From positions 1-39,460 of IMG/VR virus record IMGVR_UViG_3300009694_000006: a stretch of 39,460 nt of DNA. One strand, written 5' to 3'. Each line of letters opens with the position of its first letter. Within the stretch, counting starts at the first letter, position 1. Shown piece after piece: positions 451 through 39,460 of the stretch. Source of the stretch: a virus. Below the pieces are notes generated by a model, which had not been told where the DNA came from, ran no database searches, and saw only the letters and a list, made by a program, of their open reading frames with translations. A program made the translations under genes and the position numbers.

Positions 451-3400
451 ATGTATACACCAGTAGAACAAAGAAAAAAAATAGTTAAGCAAAAATCTTT
501 TTCTAAATCTGAAAAAAAACAAATTACTATTGAAACAGTTAAAGGTGTTTTAGGTTGGACTAAACCAGAAGATAATCCTTATTTGAAAGTTGCTAAAGAT
601 ATTGCTCAAGGAATTGCTAGAACTGTTGCGTCTGTTGGTATTTCAGCAGGTAATATTCCTAGTAAAATTAAAAGTCAAAGACCGACATTTAAAGAAGAAA
701 TTCCTACACAAGAGACAAAATTAGGTAGAGCAATCTTTGGAGAAACTCCAGTAAGAACAGTCGAAGAAAGAGTTAGACGAACTAAAGAACAAATTAAACC
801 TTATATTGGAGAAAAAATTTCTCAGAAAGTTGCTTTTCCTTTAGTAGGATTAGGCATTGCTATGGATTTAAGTGGGTTCGGAGGAGGAAAGGTTGTTAAA
901 AAAATGACAGAAATACCTGAACAATTTTGGAAAGTAATCGGAAAAGAAAAGAATGCTACTAAAATTGAAGGAATTCTTACAAGTATTGGATTAGATAAAA
1001 AGAATGCTAGATCTTTATCTGAGACTTTTGCTCCATTATCTAAAACAGAAGATCTTAAAAATGCTCTTGTATCTTATAAACCTGTATCTGAAAGAATTCC
1101 ACTTAGTGAGATTATTAAGAAAGAACCAGTTTATTATCATGGAACTAACAATGGTAAAGAAATTGTAAAACAAGGATTTAATCTTTCAAAACTAGGTGAT
1201 AACAGCGGTTATAAGGGAATAATGGGTAATGGTATATATCTTGATATGACACCTAATGCGGAAGGAGCTAAATTATATGGAAAAGATATTCTTGAGGTAA
1301 AACCAAAATCTGGATTAAAATTATTTGAATGGTCGGGAAAAGTATCTGATTTATATCATGAAAAAACTGGATATGGAACTCCTGAAAAAATTACTGAATA
1401 TTTACAATCTCAAGGATATGATGGTGTTAAACTTAATAATCAACAAATGGTTATTTTTAATCCAAAAAATATTGAAAAAGTAAAAATTTCTGGTCAAGGA
1501 ACAGGTGAATTATCTCAGATAAAAGAATCAGAAATTAAACCAGTAAAAAAAGAACCACTTCAGAATGAAACTATTAAATGGATAGATAATTGGGTTTCAG
1601 GGAGTAATAAAAAACCATCTTTGAAAGTTGAACAACAATTATCAAAGTATAAAGGAAATAAACCTGTTACATTATACAGAGCTGTTATTAAAGGAAAAGA
1701 AAAAACTAATGAAATTGAATCTTGGTCTTATTCGAAAGATGGAGCTGAATTTCATGCAGATGTTGGTTTCCCTGAAAATGCTGAATATACCATTATAGAA
1801 AAACAATTTAATCCTGAAGATATTATATTTGATAGTAGACATCTTTCTGAAGATGAACTAAGTTCTTTTTCAGAAAATGCTCTTAGATACTTAGAAACTG
1901 AAAATGAGGTTATTGTTAGAAATAATAAAATTAAAATTCCTAAAACAGGAAATGAAGTAAAAGAAAGTCCAATAGATATTAAATTTCAATCTAAGATTAA
2001 AAATAAAGAATATCTTAAGAAAAATTTCGAAGATGAAGACTTAAAAATAGAAGATTCTGGAAAAAAATATGTGTATCATGCAACTAATAGTAAAAATATT
2101 GAAGAAATTAAACAAGAAAAATTCTATAGAGCACAACCAAAAGGAGAGGGCTTAATAAAAAGAGGAGGAGGAAGTATGTATGGGAATGCTCCTCATTTCA
2201 GTGAAAATCTTGTAACTGCAAAAATGTATGGTGATAATATAATTGAATTTGGAATTAAAGATGGTTCAAATATAAAAAGATTCAAAGGAACATATGATTT
2301 GAATAAAGAAGTAGGAGAATGGGCTGAAAAAACAAAAGGAGCATTTTATAAAAATAATACTGAAGGAAATCAATTAATAGATGATTGGGCTAAGGCAAAC
2401 AAGGTTGATATATTATTTGTTGGACAAGATGGTAGTATTTTTAATCAAAATGCAATTAAAAGATTTGATGATAATAAATCTCTTTTCCCTACAGTTATTC
2501 AAGGTGAAACATTTACAATGGGTCCTTCGACAACAACTTCTCCTACATTAAAAGGGTTGAAAACTGAACTTAAAGCAACTCAAAAAGAAATTAAAAATGC
2601 ACAGATTGCTGCTGAGAAAGCTGCTAAATTAGATGCTAAAGAACAAAAAGTAAGAACAGATGCTTTATCAAAACTTAATAGATATCGAGGTTCTACTGAT
2701 ACAATTGAAGGAGAATTGAAAAATAAAAATCTATCTCAAGAGGATATTGAAAATATAGTTCTTGAAGATGGAACTAAACTACTTGATGCTGCAAAAATAA
2801 AACGTAATAATGATGGTTCTCTTTCAACTGTTATAACTAAAAAAGAACTTGAAGATATCAAAGCTAGTTATACTGATGAAGTGCCGAAACAAAAATGGGA
2901 AAAGAAATCTATACTTGTAAATGCAAAAGAAATTCCTATTAATCTTTTAAAATCAATTGAACTACCTTATTCTTATTTTGAAAGAAAAGGATTATCTTCT
3001 ATCTATGATCAAGTAATTGAATCACAAAGAGATGCTGAATTAATGAAAAGTAGATTAATTGAAAAATTCAAAGATGCTGGTTTATATAAAGAGGGAGGTT
3101 GGTTTACTGCAAATCGTTTTAACTTATCTAAGAATGAAGCTGAAGGAGTATCTGAATATTATCTTGGACATCAAGGACACGGAAAGGAAATTCCTATTAC
3201 AGATTTATCTTCTAATGGACAGAAGTTTGTTAAAGTATTTGATGAAATAATTAATGAAACAACTAAACCATTTTATGAAGTAGCTAGAAGAATGGGAAAG
3301 AATCCTGGAGTTGTTGAAAATTATGCACCAATAATGACAAGAGACGATATAAAACTTGTTGATCAAGGTGGTGGTCAAGATTGGTTATTTAGAAAACATC

Positions 3401-4920
3401 CAGCATTCTTTTCACTTAAAGAAAGAGTTAAAAGAGTACCTAAAGAAATATACGAAACAGATTATAGAAAAGTTGCAAGTCGCTGGTTAGATGGAATAAC
3501 ACAATTTATAACAATGGGTGATACTACTAACCATCTTAAGTATTTAATTAATAGTGATGAATTTAAAAGTTTAATTAAAGAACAAGATTATTCAATTGTT
3601 TCTAATTGGCTTAAAGATATCACAACTCCTCAGATATCAGGTTCATTAGCAGGACAAGCGACAAATGATTTATCTAGATTAATGAGAAAAGGAGTTGCTC
3701 TTGGGTCTCTTGGATTAAACTATGCTACAGTTCTCAAACAGGCATTAACTCAAATACCAATAACTATTATTGAAAAAGCACCTCCTAAATTTAAAAGTAA
3801 ATATGCTGAAGCTTTTGGAATTAATGTTAAAGATTTACCTTCTATTTCTAAGAGAAAAGGAGATATTGCTATATCAGATTTACAAGGTAAAATAGGAAGT
3901 ATTTTTACAGGAGCTATTACACAGTTTGATAAGAAGAATGCTCAATTAGCTATGAATGCTTTACTTGATAAAGAGTATCGTAAATTTTTAAAACAAGGAG
4001 ATGAAATAACTCCAGAAGTAAGAAAAGTAATTGAAAAGACAGCTCAAGATAAAATAGATATGTGGTTTGGAGGTTTCTTTAAAGGACAAAGACCTGAAGC
4101 TTATAGACAAGAATTAGGAAACTTTATTTTAATGTTTACTTATCCTTTGACTTCTCAAGCTAATGGATTTTTCAGACATATGTTAAAAGCTAAAGGTTTT
4201 GTTGGAAACATTAAAGCTGTTGCCGAAGTTCTTGGAGCTGTTGTAGGAATTGCTTATATGGAAAAAGTTATAGAAAATCTAAGTCCTCAATGGAGTGATG
4301 AAAAAGAAATGACAAAAGATATTCTTGTATCTGCAACAGGAAATATTCCAATGGCTGGACAGATTGCTTATGCTATAGAATCAGGACAAGATATGAACGT
4401 ATCTCCTGTTGTAGGAAATATAAATAATATAGTTAGAAATATAAGTAAAGGCGAAGGAGAAAAAGTAGCTTGGAATATTGCTGAAACTATTGGATTACCA
4501 AAACAGATTAGACGAATTAGAGAAGGTCTTGAAATAATGGAAGAAGGCGGCGTTACAGATAGTAACGGAAAAATGATGGCTCCTGTTCAAGATACTATGG
4601 AATATATTCGCGCATTCTTAAGAGGAAAATATGGACCTTTAGCTTCCCAAGATTATATTAGAAATATGGGAGCTGATGCTGAAGATAGAAGATGGTTTTA
4701 TCCTGAAGTTGAATTTTTACAAAATGCTGGAAGTTCAAAACATCCTAAAGATGGAAGTTATAAGAGAAGAGCAGAAATTTATAAAACTTGGGATAAACAA
4801 AAACAAATTGAAATGAGAAATTTTTTAAGTGAAAATCAACAAAAAAAATTAGATAAAGCTCTTCAAGGAAAGTCGACATCTAGTAAGGGCACAAAAGCAT
4901 TATCAGATATTTTTAAATAA
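451..4920 (+). CDS. Giant polyvalent virion/ejection protein (1489 aa), a T7 gp16-like position. The N-terminal third has three ADP-ribosyltransferase-like modules. The C-terminal part is a large hydrophobic/Gly-rich body.
   Basis: PARP-like motifs YYHGT...GIMGNGIYLD...AKLYG (H230). An R-S-E-like set TLYRAV (R410), SWSYS and ETENEVIV (E484, E486). A second H-Y module YVYHAT (H543)...SMYGNAPHF. Sits just before the lysis genes and after other large structural genes. Confidence 0.6.
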   Translation: MYTPVEQRKKIVKQKSFSKSEKKQITIETVKGVLGWTKPEDNPYLKVAKDIAQGIARTVASVGISAGNIPSKIKSQRPTFKEEIPTQETKLGRAIFGETPVRTVEERVRRTKEQIKPYIGEKISQKVAFPLVGLGIAMDLSGFGGGKVVKKMTEIPEQFWKVIGKEKNATKIEGILTSIGLDKKNARSLSETFAPLSKTEDLKNALVSYKPVSERIPLSEIIKKEPVYYHGTNNGKEIVKQGFNLSKLGDNSGYKGIMGNGIYLDMTPNAEGAKLYGKDILEVKPKSGLKLFEWSGKVSDLYHEKTGYGTPEKITEYLQSQGYDGVKLNNQQMVIFNPKNIEKVKISGQGTGELSQIKESEIKPVKKEPLQNETIKWIDNWVSGSNKKPSLKVEQQLSKYKGNKPVTLYRAVIKGKEKTNEIESWSYSKDGAEFHADVGFPENAEYTIIEKQFNPEDIIFDSRHLSEDELSSFSENALRYLETENEVIVRNNKIKIPKTGNEVKESPIDIKFQSKIKNKEYLKKNFEDEDLKIEDSGKKYVYHATNSKNIEEIKQEKFYRAQPKGEGLIKRGGGSMYGNAPHFSENLVTAKMYGDNIIEFGIKDGSNIKRFKGTYDLNKEVGEWAEKTKGAFYKNNTEGNQLIDDWAKANKVDILFVGQDGSIFNQNAIKRFDDNKSLFPTVIQGETFTMGPSTTTSPTLKGLKTELKATQKEIKNAQIAAEKAAKLDAKEQKVRTDALSKLNRYRGSTDTIEGELKNKNLSQEDIENIVLEDGTKLLDAAKIKRNNDGSLSTVITKKELEDIKASYTDEVPKQKWEKKSILVNAKEIPINLLKSIELPYSYFERKGLSSIYDQVIESQRDAELMKSRLIEKFKDAGLYKEGGWFTANRFNLSKNEAEGVSEYYLGHQGHGKEIPITDLSSNGQKFVKVFDEIINETTKPFYEVARRMGKNPGVVENYAPIMTRDDIKLVDQGGGQDWLFRKHPAFFSLKERVKRVPKEIYETDYRKVASRWLDGITQFITMGDTTNHLKYLINSDEFKSLIKEQDYSIVSNWLKDITTPQISGSLAGQATNDLSRLMRKGVALGSLGLNYATVLKQALTQIPITIIEKAPPKFKSKYAEAFGINVKDLPSISKRKGDIAISDLQGKIGSIFTGAITQFDKKNAQLAMNALLDKEYRKFLKQGDEITPEVRKVIEKTAQDKIDMWFGGFFKGQRPEAYRQELGNFILMFTYPLTSQANGFFRHMLKAKGFVGNIKAVAEVLGAVVGIAYMEKVIENLSPQWSDEKEMTKDILVSATGNIPMAGQIAYAIESGQDMNVSPVVGNINNIVRNISKGEGEKVAWNIAETIGLPKQIRRIREGLEIMEEGGVTDSNGKMMAPVQDTMEYIRAFLRGKYGPLASQDYIRNMGADAEDRRWFYPEVEFLQNAGSSKHPKDGSYKRRAEIYKTWDKQKQIEMRNFLSENQQKKLDKALQGKSTSSKGTKALSDIFK

Positions 4921-4922
4921 CT

Positions 4923-5885
4923 ATGCAAAATAATTACGAGGGTTGTAGAGATACACAAACAGAAGAACAGAAATCATTAAACTATAAACTTATTGAAGTG
5001 TGCTCGGCTCCTCAACCAGTTAGTTGGATTGAAAAAACTAATTATAAAAGTTATCCTATTCGTGATCAAGATGGATCATGTCAATGTGTTACAATGACAT
5101 TAGCTACTGAAATGGGGATTATTGCTGAACAGAAGTATGGAACTTTTATAGATTTTTCATCTTGTTTTCCTTACCAGCAACGAAAATATACTAGTTTTAA
5201 AGGTTGCACTTCAGAAGACTTATTCGAAGTATTTCCAAAGATAGGAAATATTCTAGAAATATTAATGCCAAGTCAGAAAATTGGAGAAAATGCTTGTATG
5301 GCAGTTCCTAAACTTAGTTACTATGATGATTTAGCAAAAGTATTTAAAATCAAAAGAATTGCATTACCACTTGATTTTGAAACAGTTGCATCAACAGTTC
5401 AAGCAACAGGAAAAGGTGTTTCAGTTTGGTTTAAGTTTGACCATACAGAATGGACTAATAAACCTCAAGTTTTAGTCTCGAACCCAACAGGAGGACATTC
5501 AGTTACTGTTGTTGATTTTGCTCTTATTAATGGTAAGAAATATCTAGTTATTCAAGATAGCTGGGGAATAAGTTTTGCAGTTCGAGGATTGAGATTTATT
5601 TCAGAAGAATACTTTAAAGCAAGATGTTATCAAGCATCATATTTACTTTCATTTTCAATGCAAACAGAACAAGGAGTAAGACCTACCTATATTAGTAGAT
5701 CAGTTAGTTCAGCAAAAGATTGTTTCAAATGGGAAGGATTATTCCCTACGAATATCGAATCAAATAATGTAGCTGATAACATTTACAAAACAGCTGTAAA
5801 AAGTTTTCAGAAACGATTTGGTTTGACTAGTGATGGGATTGTCGGACCTATTACTCGTCAAAAATTATTAGAATTATATAAATAA
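4923..5885 (+). CDS. Endolysin: papain-fold cysteine peptidase with a C-terminal peptidoglycan-binding domain.
   Basis: Cys motif DGSCQCVTM. His/Asp motifs GGHSVTVVDF and IQDSWG (papain-like NSWG). C-terminal PG_binding_1 signature FQKRFGLTSDGIVGPITRQKL. A holin-like gene follows. Confidence 0.75.
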   Translation: MQNNYEGCRDTQTEEQKSLNYKLIEVCSAPQPVSWIEKTNYKSYPIRDQDGSCQCVTMTLATEMGIIAEQKYGTFIDFSSCFPYQQRKYTSFKGCTSEDLFEVFPKIGNILEILMPSQKIGENACMAVPKLSYYDDLAKVFKIKRIALPLDFETVASTVQATGKGVSVWFKFDHTEWTNKPQVLVSNPTGGHSVTVVDFALINGKKYLVIQDSWGISFAVRGLRFISEEYFKARCYQASYLLSFSMQTEQGVRPTYISRSVSSAKDCFKWEGLFPTNIESNNVADNIYKTAVKSFQKRFGLTSDGIVGPITRQKLLELYK

Positions 5886-20282: not shown

Positions 20283-22022
20283 ATGAACATAATAAAAATA
20301 ATTGAACAAGAATTAACTGATTACGAAAGTAAATCAGTTGAAATCTCAGAATCAGTTCATCGTTCAGCATATAAAAGAATTAAAAGAATAGCATTTTTTG
20401 AAAATCAAGGAGGAGAAGATTCAAAGATAGATGAGCTAGGTCAATATCAATACTGGTTAAATCCAATTAAAATTTATATAGATTCAACAGTTAAAAGTCT
20501 TCGTATCGATACAAAAAACTTTCTAGTATTTTCAACAGCTCCTGTTGAAGATTTCCCTGCTGTATTTACTACTAATTGTGCTCTTAAAGACTACTTGTTT
20601 GATAGTAACAGAGATTCACAACTTAAAGAAGATATAGAATACTATGTAGGTTGGGGAAATAATTTATGGCGAAAACTTGAAAGTGGATACGAACTTTGTG
20701 ATTTATCGAATACATTTGTTATCAATCAATCAGCAAGAACAGTTAATGACACAGTAATTATTGAAAGACATCAATTAACTCAATCTCAGCTTAGAGAAAA
20801 AGAAGGAATATTTCAAAATATTGATAAAGTAATTAAAGAATGTGGGAATAAAACATTTAGTTCAACTCGTAAAACAACTACAGAAACAACATCTAATCCA
20901 ATGTATGAAATATACGTAAGAATGGGAGAAGTATCAGAAAAAGATTTATTTGAAGCACAAGGTAAAGAAGGAGGAGATAAAGATAAATTTCTACTTGCTA
21001 GAATAGTTACAGCAGGTCTTCAAAAATCAGGTAAAGACGATAGTAAGTTTATCTTATTTGCTGAACCTTTTGGTAAAAAGAAAATGTCAGACTTTTATAA
21101 AGAAGCACATCTTGGCAATTATCACGGAACTTGGCTACGAGAAGGTATATATGAAACATTTTTTGATTACATAATTGCTATTAGAGAAATAGATAATTCT
21201 ATTCAAGAGGGTTTAAATTGGGCTTCTAAAGTAATTTTTGCTTCATCTGATAATAAAACATTTCAAAATATAAGAACAGATATTGAAAATGGTCGAATGA
21301 TTAATTCAAAAGACTTACGTCAAGTAGATGTAAGACTTCAAAACTTAGATCAACTTATTTCTCGTCGTAATAATCTTATTGAAGAAATGGATAAAGTTGC
21401 TCATTCATTTGAAGTTATTCAAGGAGATACACCACCTTCTGGAGTTCCTCTAGGAACAACAATGGCAATGAATGAAAATGCTAATAAATATTTCATTGAA
21501 ATAAGACAAAAGTTAACTATAGCATATAAACATATCTACAAAGAATGGGAGTTACCAAGGATAGTTAAAGATTTAAAATCTCAAGATATCATTAGAGTAA
21601 CAGGAGATGTTTCAATAATTGATTCATTTAGAAAGTTAGCAGTAGATTTCTGGTATAATCAAAACTTAGTTAAAATTGGACCTCACACCCCTGAAATGAG
21701 AGAGCAATTAAAAATAGAAAAGTTAGCTGAATTAACTCAATATGAACCATTAATAGAAAATATGCCAGAAATATGGGATAATGTATTGAAACGATTATAT
21801 ATTACTATTACAGGTGAAAATATGGATCTCACAGAAAATCTTACAACAATTTCTAATTTACTACAGTATGAGACTGATTCATTTCGTCGAGCATATTTAT
21901 TAGATAGAATTTACGCTATTAAGAACATTCCAATTCCACCAGCACCAAAGCCAACAGTTCAACCAACAGCACCAACAGCACCAATAGCACCACAGACACT
22001 TACTCCAATAGCACAAACATAA
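20283..22022 (+). CDS. Putative portal protein (579 aa).
   Basis: Size, first gene of the late operon, Pro-rich C-terminal tail PIPPAPKPTVQPTAPTAPIAPQ. No specific motif recognised. Confidence 0.45.
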   Translation: MNIIKIIEQELTDYESKSVEISESVHRSAYKRIKRIAFFENQGGEDSKIDELGQYQYWLNPIKIYIDSTVKSLRIDTKNFLVFSTAPVEDFPAVFTTNCALKDYLFDSNRDSQLKEDIEYYVGWGNNLWRKLESGYELCDLSNTFVINQSARTVNDTVIIERHQLTQSQLREKEGIFQNIDKVIKECGNKTFSSTRKTTTETTSNPMYEIYVRMGEVSEKDLFEAQGKEGGDKDKFLLARIVTAGLQKSGKDDSKFILFAEPFGKKKMSDFYKEAHLGNYHGTWLREGIYETFFDYIIAIREIDNSIQEGLNWASKVIFASSDNKTFQNIRTDIENGRMINSKDLRQVDVRLQNLDQLISRRNNLIEEMDKVAHSFEVIQGDTPPSGVPLGTTMAMNENANKYFIEIRQKLTIAYKHIYKEWELPRIVKDLKSQDIIRVTGDVSIIDSFRKLAVDFWYNQNLVKIGPHTPEMREQLKIEKLAELTQYEPLIENMPEIWDNVLKRLYITITGENMDLTENLTTISNLLQYETDSFRRAYLLDRIYAIKNIPIPPAPKPTVQPTAPTAPIAPQTLTPIAQT

Positions 22023-33605: not shown

Positions 33606-34328
33606 ATGATATTTAATCACCTAACAAGTAAACAGACATTATACGCAGATGCTTTATACTGGAGTGGAGCTAATTCTGCTACCTATTTAATTGATGATTT
33701 TACACGAAATGCGAACTTTGCATATGATAGAGTTGTTAGTTTAATTCAAAAAAATGATACTCGATGGAAATGGAGTGATAGTAATAACTCTACACAAGAT
33801 ATTGCAACAACAGATATCGTTGCTAATCAAGATAATTATACGATGGAAGTTGAGCATTTAAAAATTTTAAGAGTTAGAATGAAAAAATCAGATGGTTCTT
33901 TCATTACTCTTATTCCTATTGATAGACGACAAGCTGATGATGATCTACTTAATACTTATGGAGATCCAAAGTATTATGATAAACAAGGAATGTCTCTTAA
34001 ACCATTACCTATTCCTAATTACAGTTCTACTGCAGGATTAGAAGTGGAATTTCAAGGAGGACCTAATTACTTTCTAGTAACAGATACAACTAAAGAACCT
34101 GGATTTAATTCTCTATTTCATCGTCTTATTTCATTATATGCTTCTTATGATTGGTTACTTGAAAATGCTACAGCTAAAAATCCGATGTTGCATAAGATAT
34201 TAAGAGTTGAAAAACGTATTGCTGAAATGGAAGCTGATTTAGAAGATCATTATGTTAATAGAGATGTTGATGACGCTCCAACACTTAGACCTAAACGAGT
34301 TAATAGAAATAATGGATTATCACTATAA
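33606..34328 (+). CDS. Structural protein (240 aa), possibly an adaptor or tail tubular A-like protein by synteny.
   Basis: Position directly before the 1063-aa tail protein, analogous to T7 gp11/gp12 order. Confidence 0.3.
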   Translation: MIFNHLTSKQTLYADALYWSGANSATYLIDDFTRNANFAYDRVVSLIQKNDTRWKWSDSNNSTQDIATTDIVANQDNYTMEVEHLKILRVRMKKSDGSFITLIPIDRRQADDDLLNTYGDPKYYDKQGMSLKPLPIPNYSSTAGLEVEFQGGPNYFLVTDTTKEPGFNSLFHRLISLYASYDWLLENATAKNPMLHKILRVEKRIAEMEADLEDHYVNRDVDDAPTLRPKRVNRNNGLSL

Positions 34329-37300: not shown

Positions 37301-37523
37301 TTGTGTAGATTATATTACATTACCAGCAGGAACCAGTATTGCAATTTCAGCTAAAACCAAATACGATACTTCATATGTATCACAAGCAGTTGTAACAGAT
37401 ACAGATAAAATGACAGTTAAAACTAAAGCTAATCTTCCTAAAGTTGTTAATTTACAAGTTAAAATAGATCTCATTTCTACAGGAAATTATAGTCCTGAGA
37501 TAGAGAATATTGGAATATTATAA
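34332..37523 (+). CDS. Large tail protein (1063 aa) with an internal beta-propeller-like repeat array.
   Basis: Six to seven repeats of about 50 aa with the motif (I/L)D.TH..LAY...G.IK.F. Confidence 0.55.
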   Translation: MNTPLFPNGITGLSDTKFSGSRGNAYRLVGVDFRSEPGVIKAHQKLKKISGSTVTELCKDSIDVSDGSKLWFSSESGKIWRQVGDAFTLIHTVNPVTDYKEPNSIVSGVFDDPDNETGITMSIAENDAVYGTFDSIDSAIDVTQGIENSLINLDDTYYILAYAGAGGDGYLQSFTLNSTTGAYTPVENFEHDTDNGRDNSLCRIDNTHFILAYNGGASQNGIIKTFSGTTVFTQIGNLTHDSTTTGPGYNSLIQLDATHYALAYSGGVARHGYIKIFTVDGSYGVTQTSQLIHDSSGATYGHKLIKIDSTHLMLAYTDNTTAQKIKTFSIDGSYNVTEIYSLSHLTTGNIDQGLTQIDATHYAWIGLTSARNLIKVFTIDGSYNITETFSLDVGSSSYSYNLIRTDDTHLLLVLGSSLAGTIKSFEINSSFELRELSSYDYSSLNNFEVSVIRAGRRILVVFAVNGLNYLSTITMTETYANGIVLNPSGTDKIKLIASTSISQKTMSSNYLKKTIKIPSGYSNLEVVVIAGRAVGETYPPLGATVAGNAMTQIVNRTSAYGFKCSSAYYSYVNPTVGDSEISVDFGGTLSYTYAIILVFKNVHQTTPYSTTIFDYGWKDYLKLPGDTNNQLRIGAFLSKVNPHYQGELQDTLAINEIAEETNRYTLSVSCRDYNIGTAKILSAEEFSYTQQEVVGTETIEYKPEEQISKIYYTNESVLFAVPIDKITDWANNVETIGVFHNGDDTYHSMVKQNLELFIGDKIVLAKVNTNGTFIQETSLNIASPERIQVLSTFDTDILIGTKDTNRARVLRWDTFSDSWLADDDVMETGINAFIKDDNYTYVSAGDYGRIYFYNGEKLNIQKRIPGTWDSTHKATIKENAVGYYMGNPVFGLSNVLNNPALEGVYGFGNYDEKYVKAMSLDYPLPTNEFTGVDIGCLMVNGADMYVAYKTVTDVGIAKIDSANKYATAYIESMMLTSLQDRNEDSMVEGVCVDYITLPAGTSIAISAKTKYDTSYVSQAVVTDTDKMTVKTKANLPKVVNLQVKIDLISTGNYSPEIENIGIL

Positions 37524-38161
37524 TGCAAGATCCAACAATTCAAAACAATATTAATAATACAGATACAGAATTGAAACACAGAAGAAAGGGTGGAGCATTT
37601 GATATGTTTGCTCGTATTCTTAGAGGTGTAAATAAGATCATTTTTAACACTGGAACAGTTATGAACGATAGACCAGGACTTAAACAACCAGGAGGATCAA
37701 CTAGTGGATTTACAGATTCTCAAAGTGTTTTCGAACTTTATCAAGAAATTGTTCCTAAAAAGAATAACTTTAATTTTATTGTTATTGGCAAAAAGGCAAA
37801 TCAAGAAAAAACAAATACAAACTATATTGAAATCTCAGCTAACTCAAGATCAGATGAAGCAAATATTGCGAATGGACAAGTTATGTTATCTTTAGCTAGA
37901 GATGGAGTTCTTTATGATGCAGGAATAAGTATTTTAGAAGCTTCTAACTATCCAGATTTATTTCCTGGGTCTGGTGCTCGTATACAACTAGTAGGAGAAG
38001 GAATTGGAGGAGGTATTTCAATAGCTTATCCTAAAGATGATGGAACCTATTACATGGTAGTTGTAGATAATGATGGAATACAAATGTATGGATTACCTAC
38101 TGTAAAACCAACAGGATCAAATCAATTATGGAAAAGTGGCGAATATGTTAAAATAACCTAG
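37523..38161 (+). CDS. Virion protein (212 aa), in a T7 gp14-like position.
   Basis: ATGA-type overlap with the upstream gene. Synteny only. Confidence 0.35.
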   Translation: MQDPTIQNNINNTDTELKHRRKGGAFDMFARILRGVNKIIFNTGTVMNDRPGLKQPGGSTSGFTDSQSVFELYQEIVPKKNNFNFIVIGKKANQEKTNTNYIEISANSRSDEANIANGQVMLSLARDGVLYDAGISILEASNYPDLFPGSGARIQLVGEGIGGGISIAYPKDDGTYYMVVVDNDGIQMYGLPTVKPTGSNQLWKSGEYVKIT

Positions 38162-38198: not shown

Positions 38199-39460
38199 AT
38201 GACACAAACTTACAATAGAAATACAACAACCGCCGAATTTGGAAATAGAAATCAAGCTGTTGCGGATTTACAAAAATATCTAAATACAAAAGGAGCAAAT
38301 CTTAAAGTCGATAGTATGTATGGACCTTTGACTCAAGAAGCTGTTAAAAAATATGGAACTCCTCCTGCTACAACAACTAATGTTTCCAAACTTGAAAGCC
38401 CTGTTCCTGCTACAAATTTAAGACCTACAACAAATGTTAATTTGCCTACTGTTGAAGCTCCTGATGTTTATAAAAATTACACAACTTCTCTTGCGTCAAA
38501 TGTTGATACTTTAAGAAAGAACTTAGAAACTACTTATAAAACTCAATCTGAAGATCTTGCATCAAAGAGAGAAAAGTTAATGAAAGAGCAGAAACAAATT
38601 ACGAAAGAAATGAATCCTGAAGAACGAGCAACTTATGAACAAGAAAATAGAATTAAACAACAAGAATTGAATGCCGCAGAAGTCGCTTCAGGAACATTGC
38701 AATCAGATTTTATGAAACGACGCAAGTTATCAAGCGAATTAGAAAATCTTCTAAATCAAAGTAATTCTTTAATTGCTGAAGAAAAAGGAATGCCTTTAGC
38801 TCAAAGAGTAGTTACAGCTCGAACGGCTAATACATTAAGTGATATTGCTTCTAGAACCGGTGTTATTGAAGCAACCTTTTCAGCACTTGATGGAAATATA
38901 ACTCAATCTTATAACTTAATTGATAAAGCAAAAGAGACTGTATCTGCAGATTGGCAAGATAAGTTAACTTATTATGATACGTTGCTTGATTTGAATAAAC
39001 AAGGATTACTTGATATTGATACTGAAAGTAAGGATATAGCTCAAAAACAAGTAGGATTACTTGAATCAGATCTTAAGAAAGTAACTGAAACATCTGATTA
39101 TATTAAAGAATTAATGATTGATCCTGAATCTGCTCAATTCTTAGCTGATTCGGGTGTAAAACTTACAGATAGTATTGAACAAATAAATACTAAACTTGCA
39201 ACTCAATCTAAAGCTCAACAAATAATTGACACTAAAAACGAAATGATAAAAGATGGATATACTTATATTCCATTTCCTAGTTCAACAGCTGGTTTAGTTT
39301 CTATTACAGCTGGAGATAAAACTTTATGGTTTAAACCTGAAGTCAAAGCAGTAACAACTATAGCTACAAAAACAAAAGGAGGAGCATCTGTTAATATCTT
39401 AACTCCAACCAATAAAACAGCATTACTTGGAGCTGGTTTAACTTTAGACGAAATCAATCA
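38199..39460 (+). CDS. N-terminal part of the wrap-around virion protein: peptidoglycan-binding domain, Pro/Thr linker and long coiled coil. Continues at 124-448.
   Basis: Not in the supplied track because there is no stop before the window end. I translated it without stops from ATG 38199. Contains FGNRNQAVADLQKYLNTKGANLKVDSMYGPLTQEAVKKYG, matching the PG_binding_1 pattern. Confidence 0.75.
   Translation, partial: MTQTYNRNTTTAEFGNRNQAVADLQKYLNTKGANLKVDSMYGPLTQEAVKKYGTPPATTTNVSKLESPVPATNLRPTTNVNLPTVEAPDVYKNYTTSLASNVDTLRKNLETTYKTQSEDLASKREKLMKEQKQITKEMNPEERATYEQENRIKQQELNAAEVASGTLQSDFMKRRKLSSELENLLNQSNSLIAEEKGMPLAQRVVTARTANTLSDIASRTGVIEATFSALDGNITQSYNLIDKAKETVSADWQDKLTYYDTLLDLNKQGLLDIDTESKDIAQKQVGLLESDLKKVTETSDYIKELMIDPESAQFLADSGVKLTDSIEQINTKLATQSKAQQIIDTKNEMIKDGYTYIPFPSSTAGLVSITAGDKTLWFKPEVKAVTTIATKTKGGASVNILTPTNKTALLGAGLTLDEIN
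39338..39460. repeat. Terminal direct repeat, right copy of 1-123.
   Basis: Identical 123 nt. Confidence 0.95.

Follow-up and report, generated by a model that had tools for sequence, protein, structure and literature searches.

Polyvalent proteins were defined by Iyer, Burroughs, Anand, de Souza, and Aravind in 2017 (PMC5512222); their genes lie with the late virion genes, and the proteins are predicted to enter the host by injection (PMC5512222, PMC9503650). Their commonest protein-modifying domains are ADP-ribosyltransferases (ARTs) of the H-Y-D, Tox-ART-HYD2-like type, present in one to twelve copies per protein, for which an Alt-like action after injection has been proposed, T4 Alt being the paradigm of a head-packaged, injected ART; R-S-E ARTs of the Alt/VIP2 type were not seen in genuine polyvalent proteins (PMC5512222). 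The packaging of ARTs in the head was reiterated in a 2022 survey (PMC9503650). In the pre-ejectosome of cyanopodophage A4, the middle layer is formed by gp28 (1058 aa), which has a lytic transglycosylase, an M23 peptidase, and an alpha+beta domain without an assigned function (PMC12002296). The anti-CRISPR protein AcrIF11 (PDB entry 6KYF) is an ART that ADP-ribosylates Csy1 and has D115 as its catalytic residue. Here we describe a 1489-aa protein encoded at positions 451 to 4920 of IMG/VR virus record IMGVR_UViG_3300009694_000006, the 39,460 nucleotides of which were analyzed whole and are called the window below. The protein carries three ART-like modules, a, b, and c. The explanation that we favor, with somewhat better than even confidence, is that this product of an uncultured podovirus-like phage is an internal virion (ejection) protein of the polyvalent type and would deliver ART effectors.

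The open reading frame (ORF) reported in the first-pass annotation is real, and all ten motifs quoted there were found in the translated protein at the positions given. At full length, the protein had no match in Pfam (E ≤ 10), PHROGs, or the PDB sequences and no tblastn match among 50,697 deposited phage genomes. Among 5.8 billion clustered proteins, 13 relatives were found, all of them giant (976 to 1541 aa). It contains no cysteine. BLAST mapping and phmmer divided it into five blocks with independent sets of homologs, three of them effector-like:

451..4920, + strand: giant gene, whole ORF, ATG start, 1489 aa; modular polyvalent-type putative ejection protein
451..1095, + strand: N-terminal conserved domain (aa 1-215) with a hydrophobic 19-mer at aa 127-145; putative packaging/anchor module
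1099..1500, + strand: module a (aa 217-350), predicted ART fold of the PARP/ART-PolyVal type, with H230, Y263, and Y276, Q332 at the acid position, and N337 at the strand end
1576..1965, + strand: module b (aa 376-505), candidate minimal ART with R410, S424, W425, and E484-N-E486
2050..2520, + strand: module c (aa 534-690, core about 555-672), predicted R-variant ART fold with R560 on strand 1, GNAPHF on strand 2, Y593, D660 at the acid position, and a three-helix insertion
2521..4917, + strand: C-terminal body (aa 691-1489), putative structural, channel-forming part of the ejection protein

The protein has a modular architecture. Its N-terminal block (aa 1-235 in the BLAST map) was 39 to 53% identical to the N termini of P0002, P0005 to P0007, and P0009 to P0013 (related proteins and loci are cited by P and L numbers), giant proteins that otherwise differ, and the domain is common to at least ten other giant proteins. 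P0012, which has only this domain in common with the window protein, carries the Pfam domains ART-PolyVal (PF18760; 40.4 bits) and LPD38, one of the large polyvalent-protein-associated domains (LPDs), and P0008 also carries LPD38. At the other end, aa 534-1489 were 66% identical to P0002 and aa 680-1489 were 40% identical to P0003 by BLAST, and the C-terminal body taken separately was 78% identical to P0002, 65% to L008, 58% to L009, and 43% to P0003. The first-pass annotation had described this body as having Gly-rich and hydrophobic segments; hydropathy analysis located hydrophobic 19-mers at aa 1250-1268 and aa 1291-1309, but at 7.5% Gly the first half of the description did not hold. No relationship of the body was found in the PDB or Pfam. 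An LPD38-like identity was rejected, the hhalign comparison with the LPD38-containing region of P0008/P0012 having a probability of 0.1%.

Between the N-terminal domain and the body, one H-type ART is present in P0002 and L008, an R-type ART plus other modules in L009, and three modules in the window, and an SLT-like lytic transglycosylase domain (E value of 5.8e-4) at the N terminus of P0003 replaces the ART modules. Judged from these alignments, this segment is a predicted hypervariable effector slot. P0005, which has the same N-terminal domain as the window protein, contains at aa 535-690 of its slot a "ParB C-terminal domain" (phrog_2579; E value of 5.5e-28), indicating that the slot accepts non-ART effectors. 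A caveat for classing the window protein as polyvalent is that its three effector-like modules are all ART-like and not biochemically disparate.

Module a contains YYHGT (aa 228-232, nt 1132-1146), IVKQGF (aa 238-243), GIMGNGIYLD (aa 256-265), AKLYG (aa 273-277), and LNNQQMVIFN (aa 328-337, nt 1432-1461). In BLAST comparisons of aa 217-386, it shared 90% identity with a module in P0004, which is otherwise an unrelated protein, and 44 to 47% identity with modules in P0008 and P0014, with H230, Y263 (GxGIY), and Y276 (AKLYG) invariant in all four a-type modules. A homolog search with the 176-aa module alone gave zero matches, not even to its own protein, which we attribute to a word-index limit and do not count as evidence. 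The a-type module of P0014 matched ART-PolyVal PF18760 (E value of 2.5e-6; 28.7 bits against a cutoff of 31.2; profile positions 6-129 of 140) and Pfam PARP (E value of 1.4e-5; 25.2 bits against a cutoff of 26.7). A profile built from seven a/c-type modules retrieved 30 PDB chains, all of them PARP catalytic domains (E values of 1e-3 to 8e-2), led by tankyrases (E value of ~1e-3) and then PARP10, and the alignment spanned the HG(S/T)...GF...GxGIY...A..Y region of PARPs. The evidence for PARP-type similarity of modules a and c is consistent, if individually weak.

In an alignment of 15 modules, the column of the PARP catalytic Glu was occupied by Q332 in the window, by Gln also in P0004 and P0008, and by Glu in P0014, and a second column at the strand end held Asp in the modules without the first acid. 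The earlier suggestion that module a is PARP-like and possibly an H-Y-Q variant is thus upheld by the position of Q332 and by the PARP profile matches. Set against the H-Y-D triad of PF18760, module a has H230 and Y263 but Q332/N337. The published name H-Y-[EDQ] (PMC9503650) of the clade, which comprises PARP and diphtheria toxin-like ARTs, includes Q, which is therefore an accepted variant at the third position. From sequence comparison, the ART fold of module a is well supported and its full activity doubtful; it has no acidic catalytic residue and is more likely to be a weak mono-ART or an NAD+/ADP-ribose-binding pseudo-enzyme.

Module c had been read as a second H-Y-type module from YVYHAT (aa 540-545, nt 2068-2085) and SMYGNAPHF (aa 575-583). 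The ART fold in that reading is supported by hhalign and Foldseek, but the assignment of the H-Y motif to YVYHAT did not survive, given R560 and the occurrence of this His in only two of the six c-type modules. The family consists of the window module and five relatives found by phmmer among representative sequences (39 to 56% identity), mostly at the C termini of other large proteins. Invariant in all six were R560 (F-Y-R-(G/A)-Q), G578 and N579 (GN.PHF), A590, Y593, and N665, and position 660, within (D/E)660-G-x-[IV]-F-N665, was Asp or Glu in every member; the helical insert was strongly conserved as well (YRYNTETNQ.I..WAK.N.[VI]D). Compared by hhalign, the a and c families matched with a probability of 91% (E value of 1e-6; 107 columns), YYHGT of a pairing with FYRAQ of c, and the same pairing was produced by BLAST between P0004 (a-type) and P0015 (c-type) at an E value of 8e-9.

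Modules b and c were modeled separately in AlphaFold2 (AF2) because MAFFT had misplaced fragments in the alignment for a single model of aa 215-700, where b-type fragments and strand 5 of the a-type modules were misaligned onto module c. In the model of module c (predicted local distance difference test [pLDDT] score of 74), KFYRA formed strand 1, and YVYHAT, which precedes the conserved core, lay in a tail with a pLDDT below 50. R-for-H substitutions recurred in the ART modules of the L009 giant ortholog and of P0021. Based on the hhalign result, the second BLAST link, the AF2 model, and this recurrence, R560 was taken as the strand 1 residue. YVYHAT as strand 1 was rejected, since the family alignment, hhalign, the BLAST link, and the AF2 model all favor R560. 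As a counter-result, BLASTP of window modules a and c paired the two His motifs (E value of 0.002), and the YVYHAT segment also fits the PARP1 pattern HGS-helix-GLRIAP; this His may be an optional or lineage-specific extra element. The positions of the H-Y-D triad of PF18760 are taken in module c by R560, by F584, which is the F of GNAPHF, and by D660.

Foldseek comparison of the module c model with the PDB returned first 9k3a_B, from the cyanophage A4 pre-ejectosome (E value of 1.8e-4; probability of 1.00; template modeling [TM] score of the query, TMq, of 0.47), second 6kyf (E value of 0.12; TM score of the target, TMt, of 0.53; TMq of 0.47), and further tankyrase-1, tankyrase-2, PARP4, and PARP2 (E values of 0.1 to 2), an Xre-RES toxin, Tpt1/KptA, and RhsP2. 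A c-only profile gave only chance matches in the PDB, and an IMG/VR scan with the c alignment found no relatives. Because of the structural matches to AcrIF11 and the PARPs, module c has an ART fold with a conserved acid at the catalytic position and, like AcrIF11, a helical insertion. Both have a small ART core, of the H-Y-D type in AcrIF11, that is broken by a variable helical region, and a counterdefense role like that of AcrIF11 is plausible for an early-delivered effector such as module c. Unlike module c, AcrIF11 is free-standing (~140 aa) and not part of a virion protein, and it has His where module c has Arg on strand 1; the match between them, although second best, was not significant.

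The best match of module c is to an experimentally seen capsid-internal protein with helical bundles and enzymatic domains (PMC12002296). Chain B of 9k3a is probably A4 gp28, and the part matched by the model of module c would then be the gp28 alpha+beta domain. Since the next matches of module c are ARTs, this domain may be an unrecognized ART-like fold. The two systems differ in that no sequence similarity to module c was detected and in that the lytic transglycosylase and M23 hydrolases of gp28 are absent from the window protein.

Module b contains TLYRAV (aa 407-412, nt 1669-1686), SWSYS (aa 424-428), and ETENEVIV (aa 482-489, nt 1894-1917). With aa 380-700 as the query, phmmer found five b-type relatives in an exhaustive search of 1.84 billion representatives, and a profile search found four more, giving an alignment of 11 sequences with the window module included. 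Six of these relatives are stand-alone proteins of 127 to 232 aa (P0020, P0022, and P0025 to P0028), and the others lie inside giant proteins (P0021, P0023, and P0024, the last with two copies), P0023 carrying a pol-beta-type nucleotidyltransferase in addition. L408, S424, W425, and E486 were invariant (11/11), and Y409, R410, P455, and E484 were present in 10 of the 11 modules; in this alignment, the conserved residues form exactly an R/S-x-S/E-x-E pattern. As with most of the motifs quoted in the first-pass annotation, conservation across the module family indicates more than chance.

The AF2 model of module b was confident (pLDDT of 82.7; predicted TM score of 0.75) and had the order helix-helix-beta1(LYR)-beta2(SWS)-helix-beta3-beta4-helices-beta5(ExE-VIV). 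This arrangement matches that of R-S-E ARTs: the Arg lies in the first strand, S-x-S in the second, ahead of a helix, and ExE where the last core strand begins. The module differs from these enzymes in its core of only ~100 residues, its 14-residue spacing from R to S, the lack of a profile match, and TM scores of 0.3 to 0.46. In the PDB, the best Foldseek match had an E value of 0.23 (TM scores of 0.3 to 0.43), and R-S-E ARTs made up 11 of the first 37 matches, among them Vis (three entries), EcPltA, CDTa, C3larvin, iota toxin Ia, cholera toxin A1, and the Rhs toxins TreX and TreTu. In BFVD, the best matches were uncharacterized phage proteins (E value of 2.5e-4; TMq of 0.59), followed by a polyvalent-associated protein, an "ADP ribosyltransferase domain" protein (E value of 0.047), and the T4-type proteins ModB (0.14) and ModA (0.22). 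Pfam scans of seven b-type members were empty, and both b-family profiles gave only chance matches in the PDB (urease and DgcZ).

Of the R-S-ExE ART claimed for module b, then, the motif conservation is strong, and the fold rests on subsignificant ART matches with no profile link. Counting against an ART are the absence of a significant PDB structural match and of any profile link to ARTs and the low hhalign probability between b and c (4%; P value of 0.009). An alternative is that only a and c are ART folds and that b is an unrelated small alpha/beta large polyvalent-protein-associated domain in which R, S, and ExE arose by convergence or chance. The insignificant PDB matches (TM scores of at most 0.43), the uncharacterized proteins that head the BFVD matches, and the lack of Pfam and PDB profile matches all favor it. 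The R-to-S spacing in classical R-S-E toxins is much longer than 14 residues, which also speaks for this alternative, as does the position of b next to a/c-type ARTs in three proteins (the window protein, P0021, and P0024), as would be expected of an accessory domain. We nevertheless regard it as unlikely: the subthreshold matches are dominated by R-S-E ARTs of several families together with T4 ModA and ModB, which would be improbable for a random alpha/beta domain; the predicted secondary structure puts R, S, and ExE on ART strands; and the hhalign match to c, weak as it is, is in register over beta1, beta2, the helix, and beta3. In our reading, module b is probably a minimal R-S-E-type ART whose family is absent from Pfam, PHROGs, and the PDB sequences.

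In P0024 (1513 aa), an ART-like segment (about aa 938-1081) lies between the two b copies (aa 835-932 and 1123-1210), and in P0021 (1449 aa), the b-type module is close to an a/c-type ART-like module; b-type and a/c-type modules may work together. The stand-alone b-type protein P0022 is encoded at 8001-8384 of L005; the same contig has genes for three Ser/Thr protein kinases and a trypsin-like protease and offers no obvious phage structural context.

Several further results weigh against the presence of functional ARTs in the window protein. None of modules a, b, and c had a direct match to any Pfam ART family, even at E ≤ 10, and the matches of the P0014 homolog to PF18760 and PARP were below the Pfam gathering scores. 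An a-only profile returned the same PARP list at an E value of only ~0.2. In the 15-module alignment, an acid was missing from both columns only in window module a (Q332, N337) and its P0004 twin. The strand 1 His was missing from four of the six c-type modules, and Arg is noncanonical in that clade. The missing acids, the missing His, and the lack of a Pfam ART match would also fit modules that are ART-derived but catalytically dead, serving in the pre-ejectosome as spacers or as NAD+/ADP-ribose/target-binding domains, with a purely mechanical role for the protein in the capsid core and the trans-envelope channel; that the best match of c is a structural pre-ejectosome component, to the alpha+beta domain of which its authors gave no enzymatic role, points the same way. 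We consider such a role for all of the modules improbable, since R, S, and ExE are kept in 10 to 11 of the 11 b-type members and the Arg and the acid in 6/6 c-type members, as expected for active sites, Gln is accepted in the published H-Y-[EDQ] clade name (PMC9503650), the stand-alone b-type proteins argue for autonomous activity, and rapid module swapping in the slot is typical of arms-race effectors, not of spacers. From the residues present, modules b and c are likely to have enzymatic activity, and module a may be a pseudo-enzyme. Conservation of the residues at the family level and the ART-type fold similarity of a and c were observed directly, as were the modular architecture and the synteny.

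The window protein shares with the polyvalent ART-PolyVal proteins its giant, multidomain form, its place in a late virion gene block, several ART-like modules, domain shuffling, and an N-terminal domain that also occurs in P0012 together with PF18760 and LPD38. It differs from them in matching no PF18760, LPD, or processing peptidase (MPTase) model, in having modules of three different sequence families and not repeats of one, and in its triads (H-Y-Q, R-S-ExE, and R-x-D against the published H-Y-D). The absence of a processing peptidase and of any LPD model (Pfam, E ≤ 10) speaks against a polyvalent-type protein. The view that three ART folds in one protein are unusual was overstated, as one to twelve copies per protein have been published (PMC5512222), and the concept and the ART multiplicity are both known from that work. 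What is different here is the occurrence of three ART-type families in one protein, the noncanonical triads (H-Y-Q and R-x-D), the R-S-ExE mini-module family that is absent from Pfam, PHROGs, and the PDB sequences, and, through the model of module c, a structural link to a solved pre-ejectosome. A more ambitious and rather unlikely version, which we put forward tentatively, is that module b represents the smallest R-S-ExE ART family (core of ~100 residues), existing both as stand-alone phage or mobile-element proteins and as a cassette in injected giant proteins, contrary to the absence of this type in the 2017 survey (PMC5512222). Module c and the A4 gp28 alpha+beta domain would be R-variant ARTs, podovirus ejectosomes would have ADP-ribosylating effectors as integral parts, and a single phage would deliver three mechanistically different ARTs that strike more than one host target within the first seconds after infection.

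The ejection role was considered from the genes around the giant gene:

33606..34328, + strand: adaptor-like protein, 240 aa, 62% identical to the 240-aa protein of L003
34332..37523, + strand: nozzle-position protein, 1063 aa, syntenic, with 42 to 62% identity in L001 and L003 and no family match
37523..38161, + strand: conserved neighbor, 212 aa, candidate small internal protein
38199..39460, continuing to nt 448, + strand: peptidoglycan-binding-like protein, ~528 aa, directly upstream of the giant gene and spanning the window ends
4923..5885, + strand: endolysin-like protein with a papain-family N terminus (Peptidase_C1-like; E value of 1.4e-3) and a C-terminal PG_binding_1 domain, directly downstream of the giant gene

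The same order, fiber-like, 240 aa, ~1100 aa, ~212 to 248 aa, ~525 aa with LysM/peptidoglycan binding, giant protein, and endolysin, was conserved in L001/L002 (P0003) and L003/L004 (P0002). One of three aligned 240-aa orthologs (A9) matched PF24175 SU10_adaptor (E value of 5.9e-7), and a precomputed Pfam table listed a weak SU10_adaptor match for the L003 protein; the window 240-aa protein itself had no family match, and the adaptor profile found nothing in the PDB. The protein encoded directly before the giant gene (~528 aa when the 123-bp end repeat is counted only once) has a peptidoglycan-binding-like N terminus (LKVDSMYGPLTQEAVKKYG) followed by a long helical region and is 61% identical to a 525-aa protein of L003 that carries LysM; it may be a second ejection or cell wall-engaging protein in a gp15-like slot.

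Adaptor, nozzle, and internal core proteins follow one another in the gene order of T7-like podoviruses. The placement of the giant gene in the position of a T7 gp16-type gene was supported, since it lies in a late virion block in the slot that T7 gives to gp13 to gp16. The window protein resembles T7 gp16 in size (~1300 to 1500 aa), in its gene position behind an adaptor, a nozzle-position protein, and a pair of smaller proteins, in having an enzymatic module on the N-terminal side of a long body with hydrophobic segments, and in the SLT-like domain of its ortholog P0003; it differs in that its effector modules are ART-like and not a lytic transglycosylase and in showing no detectable sequence homology. 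The conserved gene order and the SLT-like domain of P0003 support a T7 gp16-like ejected protein. By sequence, the window protein falls under neither the polyvalent nor the gp16 proteins, although it would work like both. A tape-measure or tail fiber identity was rejected, as no such signatures were present and the gene follows an adaptor-type gene.

Two points tell against ejection. No sequence similarity to T7 gp16 or any characterized ejection protein was found in Pfam, PHROGs, the PDB, or the deposited phages, and packaging is something that we purely infer, the phage being uncultured and known from metagenomic sequence. Alternatively, the protein might belong to the outside of the particle, as a structural part of the tail or of something like a baseplate, might be a ruler of the tape-measure kind, or might act late in the cytoplasm and modify host or phage proteins during assembly; T4 ModA and ModB act without being packaged. 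Such a role would accord with the lack of homology to any protein shown to be ejected, with the adjoining endolysin gene, and with a portal that was not recognized by PHROGs or Pfam among the window proteins, the morphotype being deduced from one adaptor-family match in an ortholog. The 579-aa ORF upstream of the terminase (20283-22022), the 1063-aa ORF, and a 380-aa ORF had no family matches. We judge a nonejected protein very unlikely, because sheath, tube, and tape-measure signatures were absent, the order after an SU10/T7 gp11-type adaptor matches the podovirus internal-core block, P0003 has an SLT-like N terminus as T7 gp16 does, module c is similar in structure to one chain of a solved pre-ejectosome, and ART-PolyVal and LPD38, both hallmarks of phage polyvalent proteins, occur in relatives of the N-terminal domain.

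For a polyvalent-type ejection protein, we propose the following course of events. The N-terminal domain and the C-terminal body would form a scaffold that packs the protein in the capsid with the neighboring small internal proteins and later helps to build a trans-envelope conduit. The hypervariable slot between the scaffold parts would be filled with different effectors in related phages and here with a (H-Y-Q, PARP/ART-PolyVal-like), b (~100-residue R-S-ExE), and c (R-x-D, a variant of the a-type fold that has a helical insertion). On infection, the protein would be ejected ahead of or with the DNA, and modules b and c, in which no catalytic-type residue is missing, would ADP-ribosylate proteins of the host at the expense of its NAD+, the likely targets being the transcription or translation machinery or defense complexes. 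Takeover would thereby be favored or immunity blocked, in line with the actions of T4 Alt and AcrIF11.

What happens in the first minutes of infection is decided by injected effectors, and T4 Alt and AcrIF11 illustrate that a single ART can reprogram transcription or disable CRISPR. If the proposal is correct, modules b and c would be compact candidate enzymes for counterdefense or host takeover, and the polyvalent-protein concept would be connected to the structurally defined pre-ejectosome of cyanophage A4. If module b is active, R-S-E ARTs would have a smaller minimum size than before. With inactive modules, the protein would be one more member of a published class.

The window is a complete phage genome with 30% GC, assembled as a circle of ~39,337 bp since its two ends carry the same repeat, positions 1-123 being an exact 123-bp direct repeat of 39338-39460. 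All ORFs of at least 100 aa lie on the + strand except for two that overlap larger + strand ORFs. RNA folding at the start of the giant gene was unremarkable (z = -0.6). The architecture of the endolysin encoded downstream was the same in L001, and L003 has a Glyco_hydro_19 lysin at that place.

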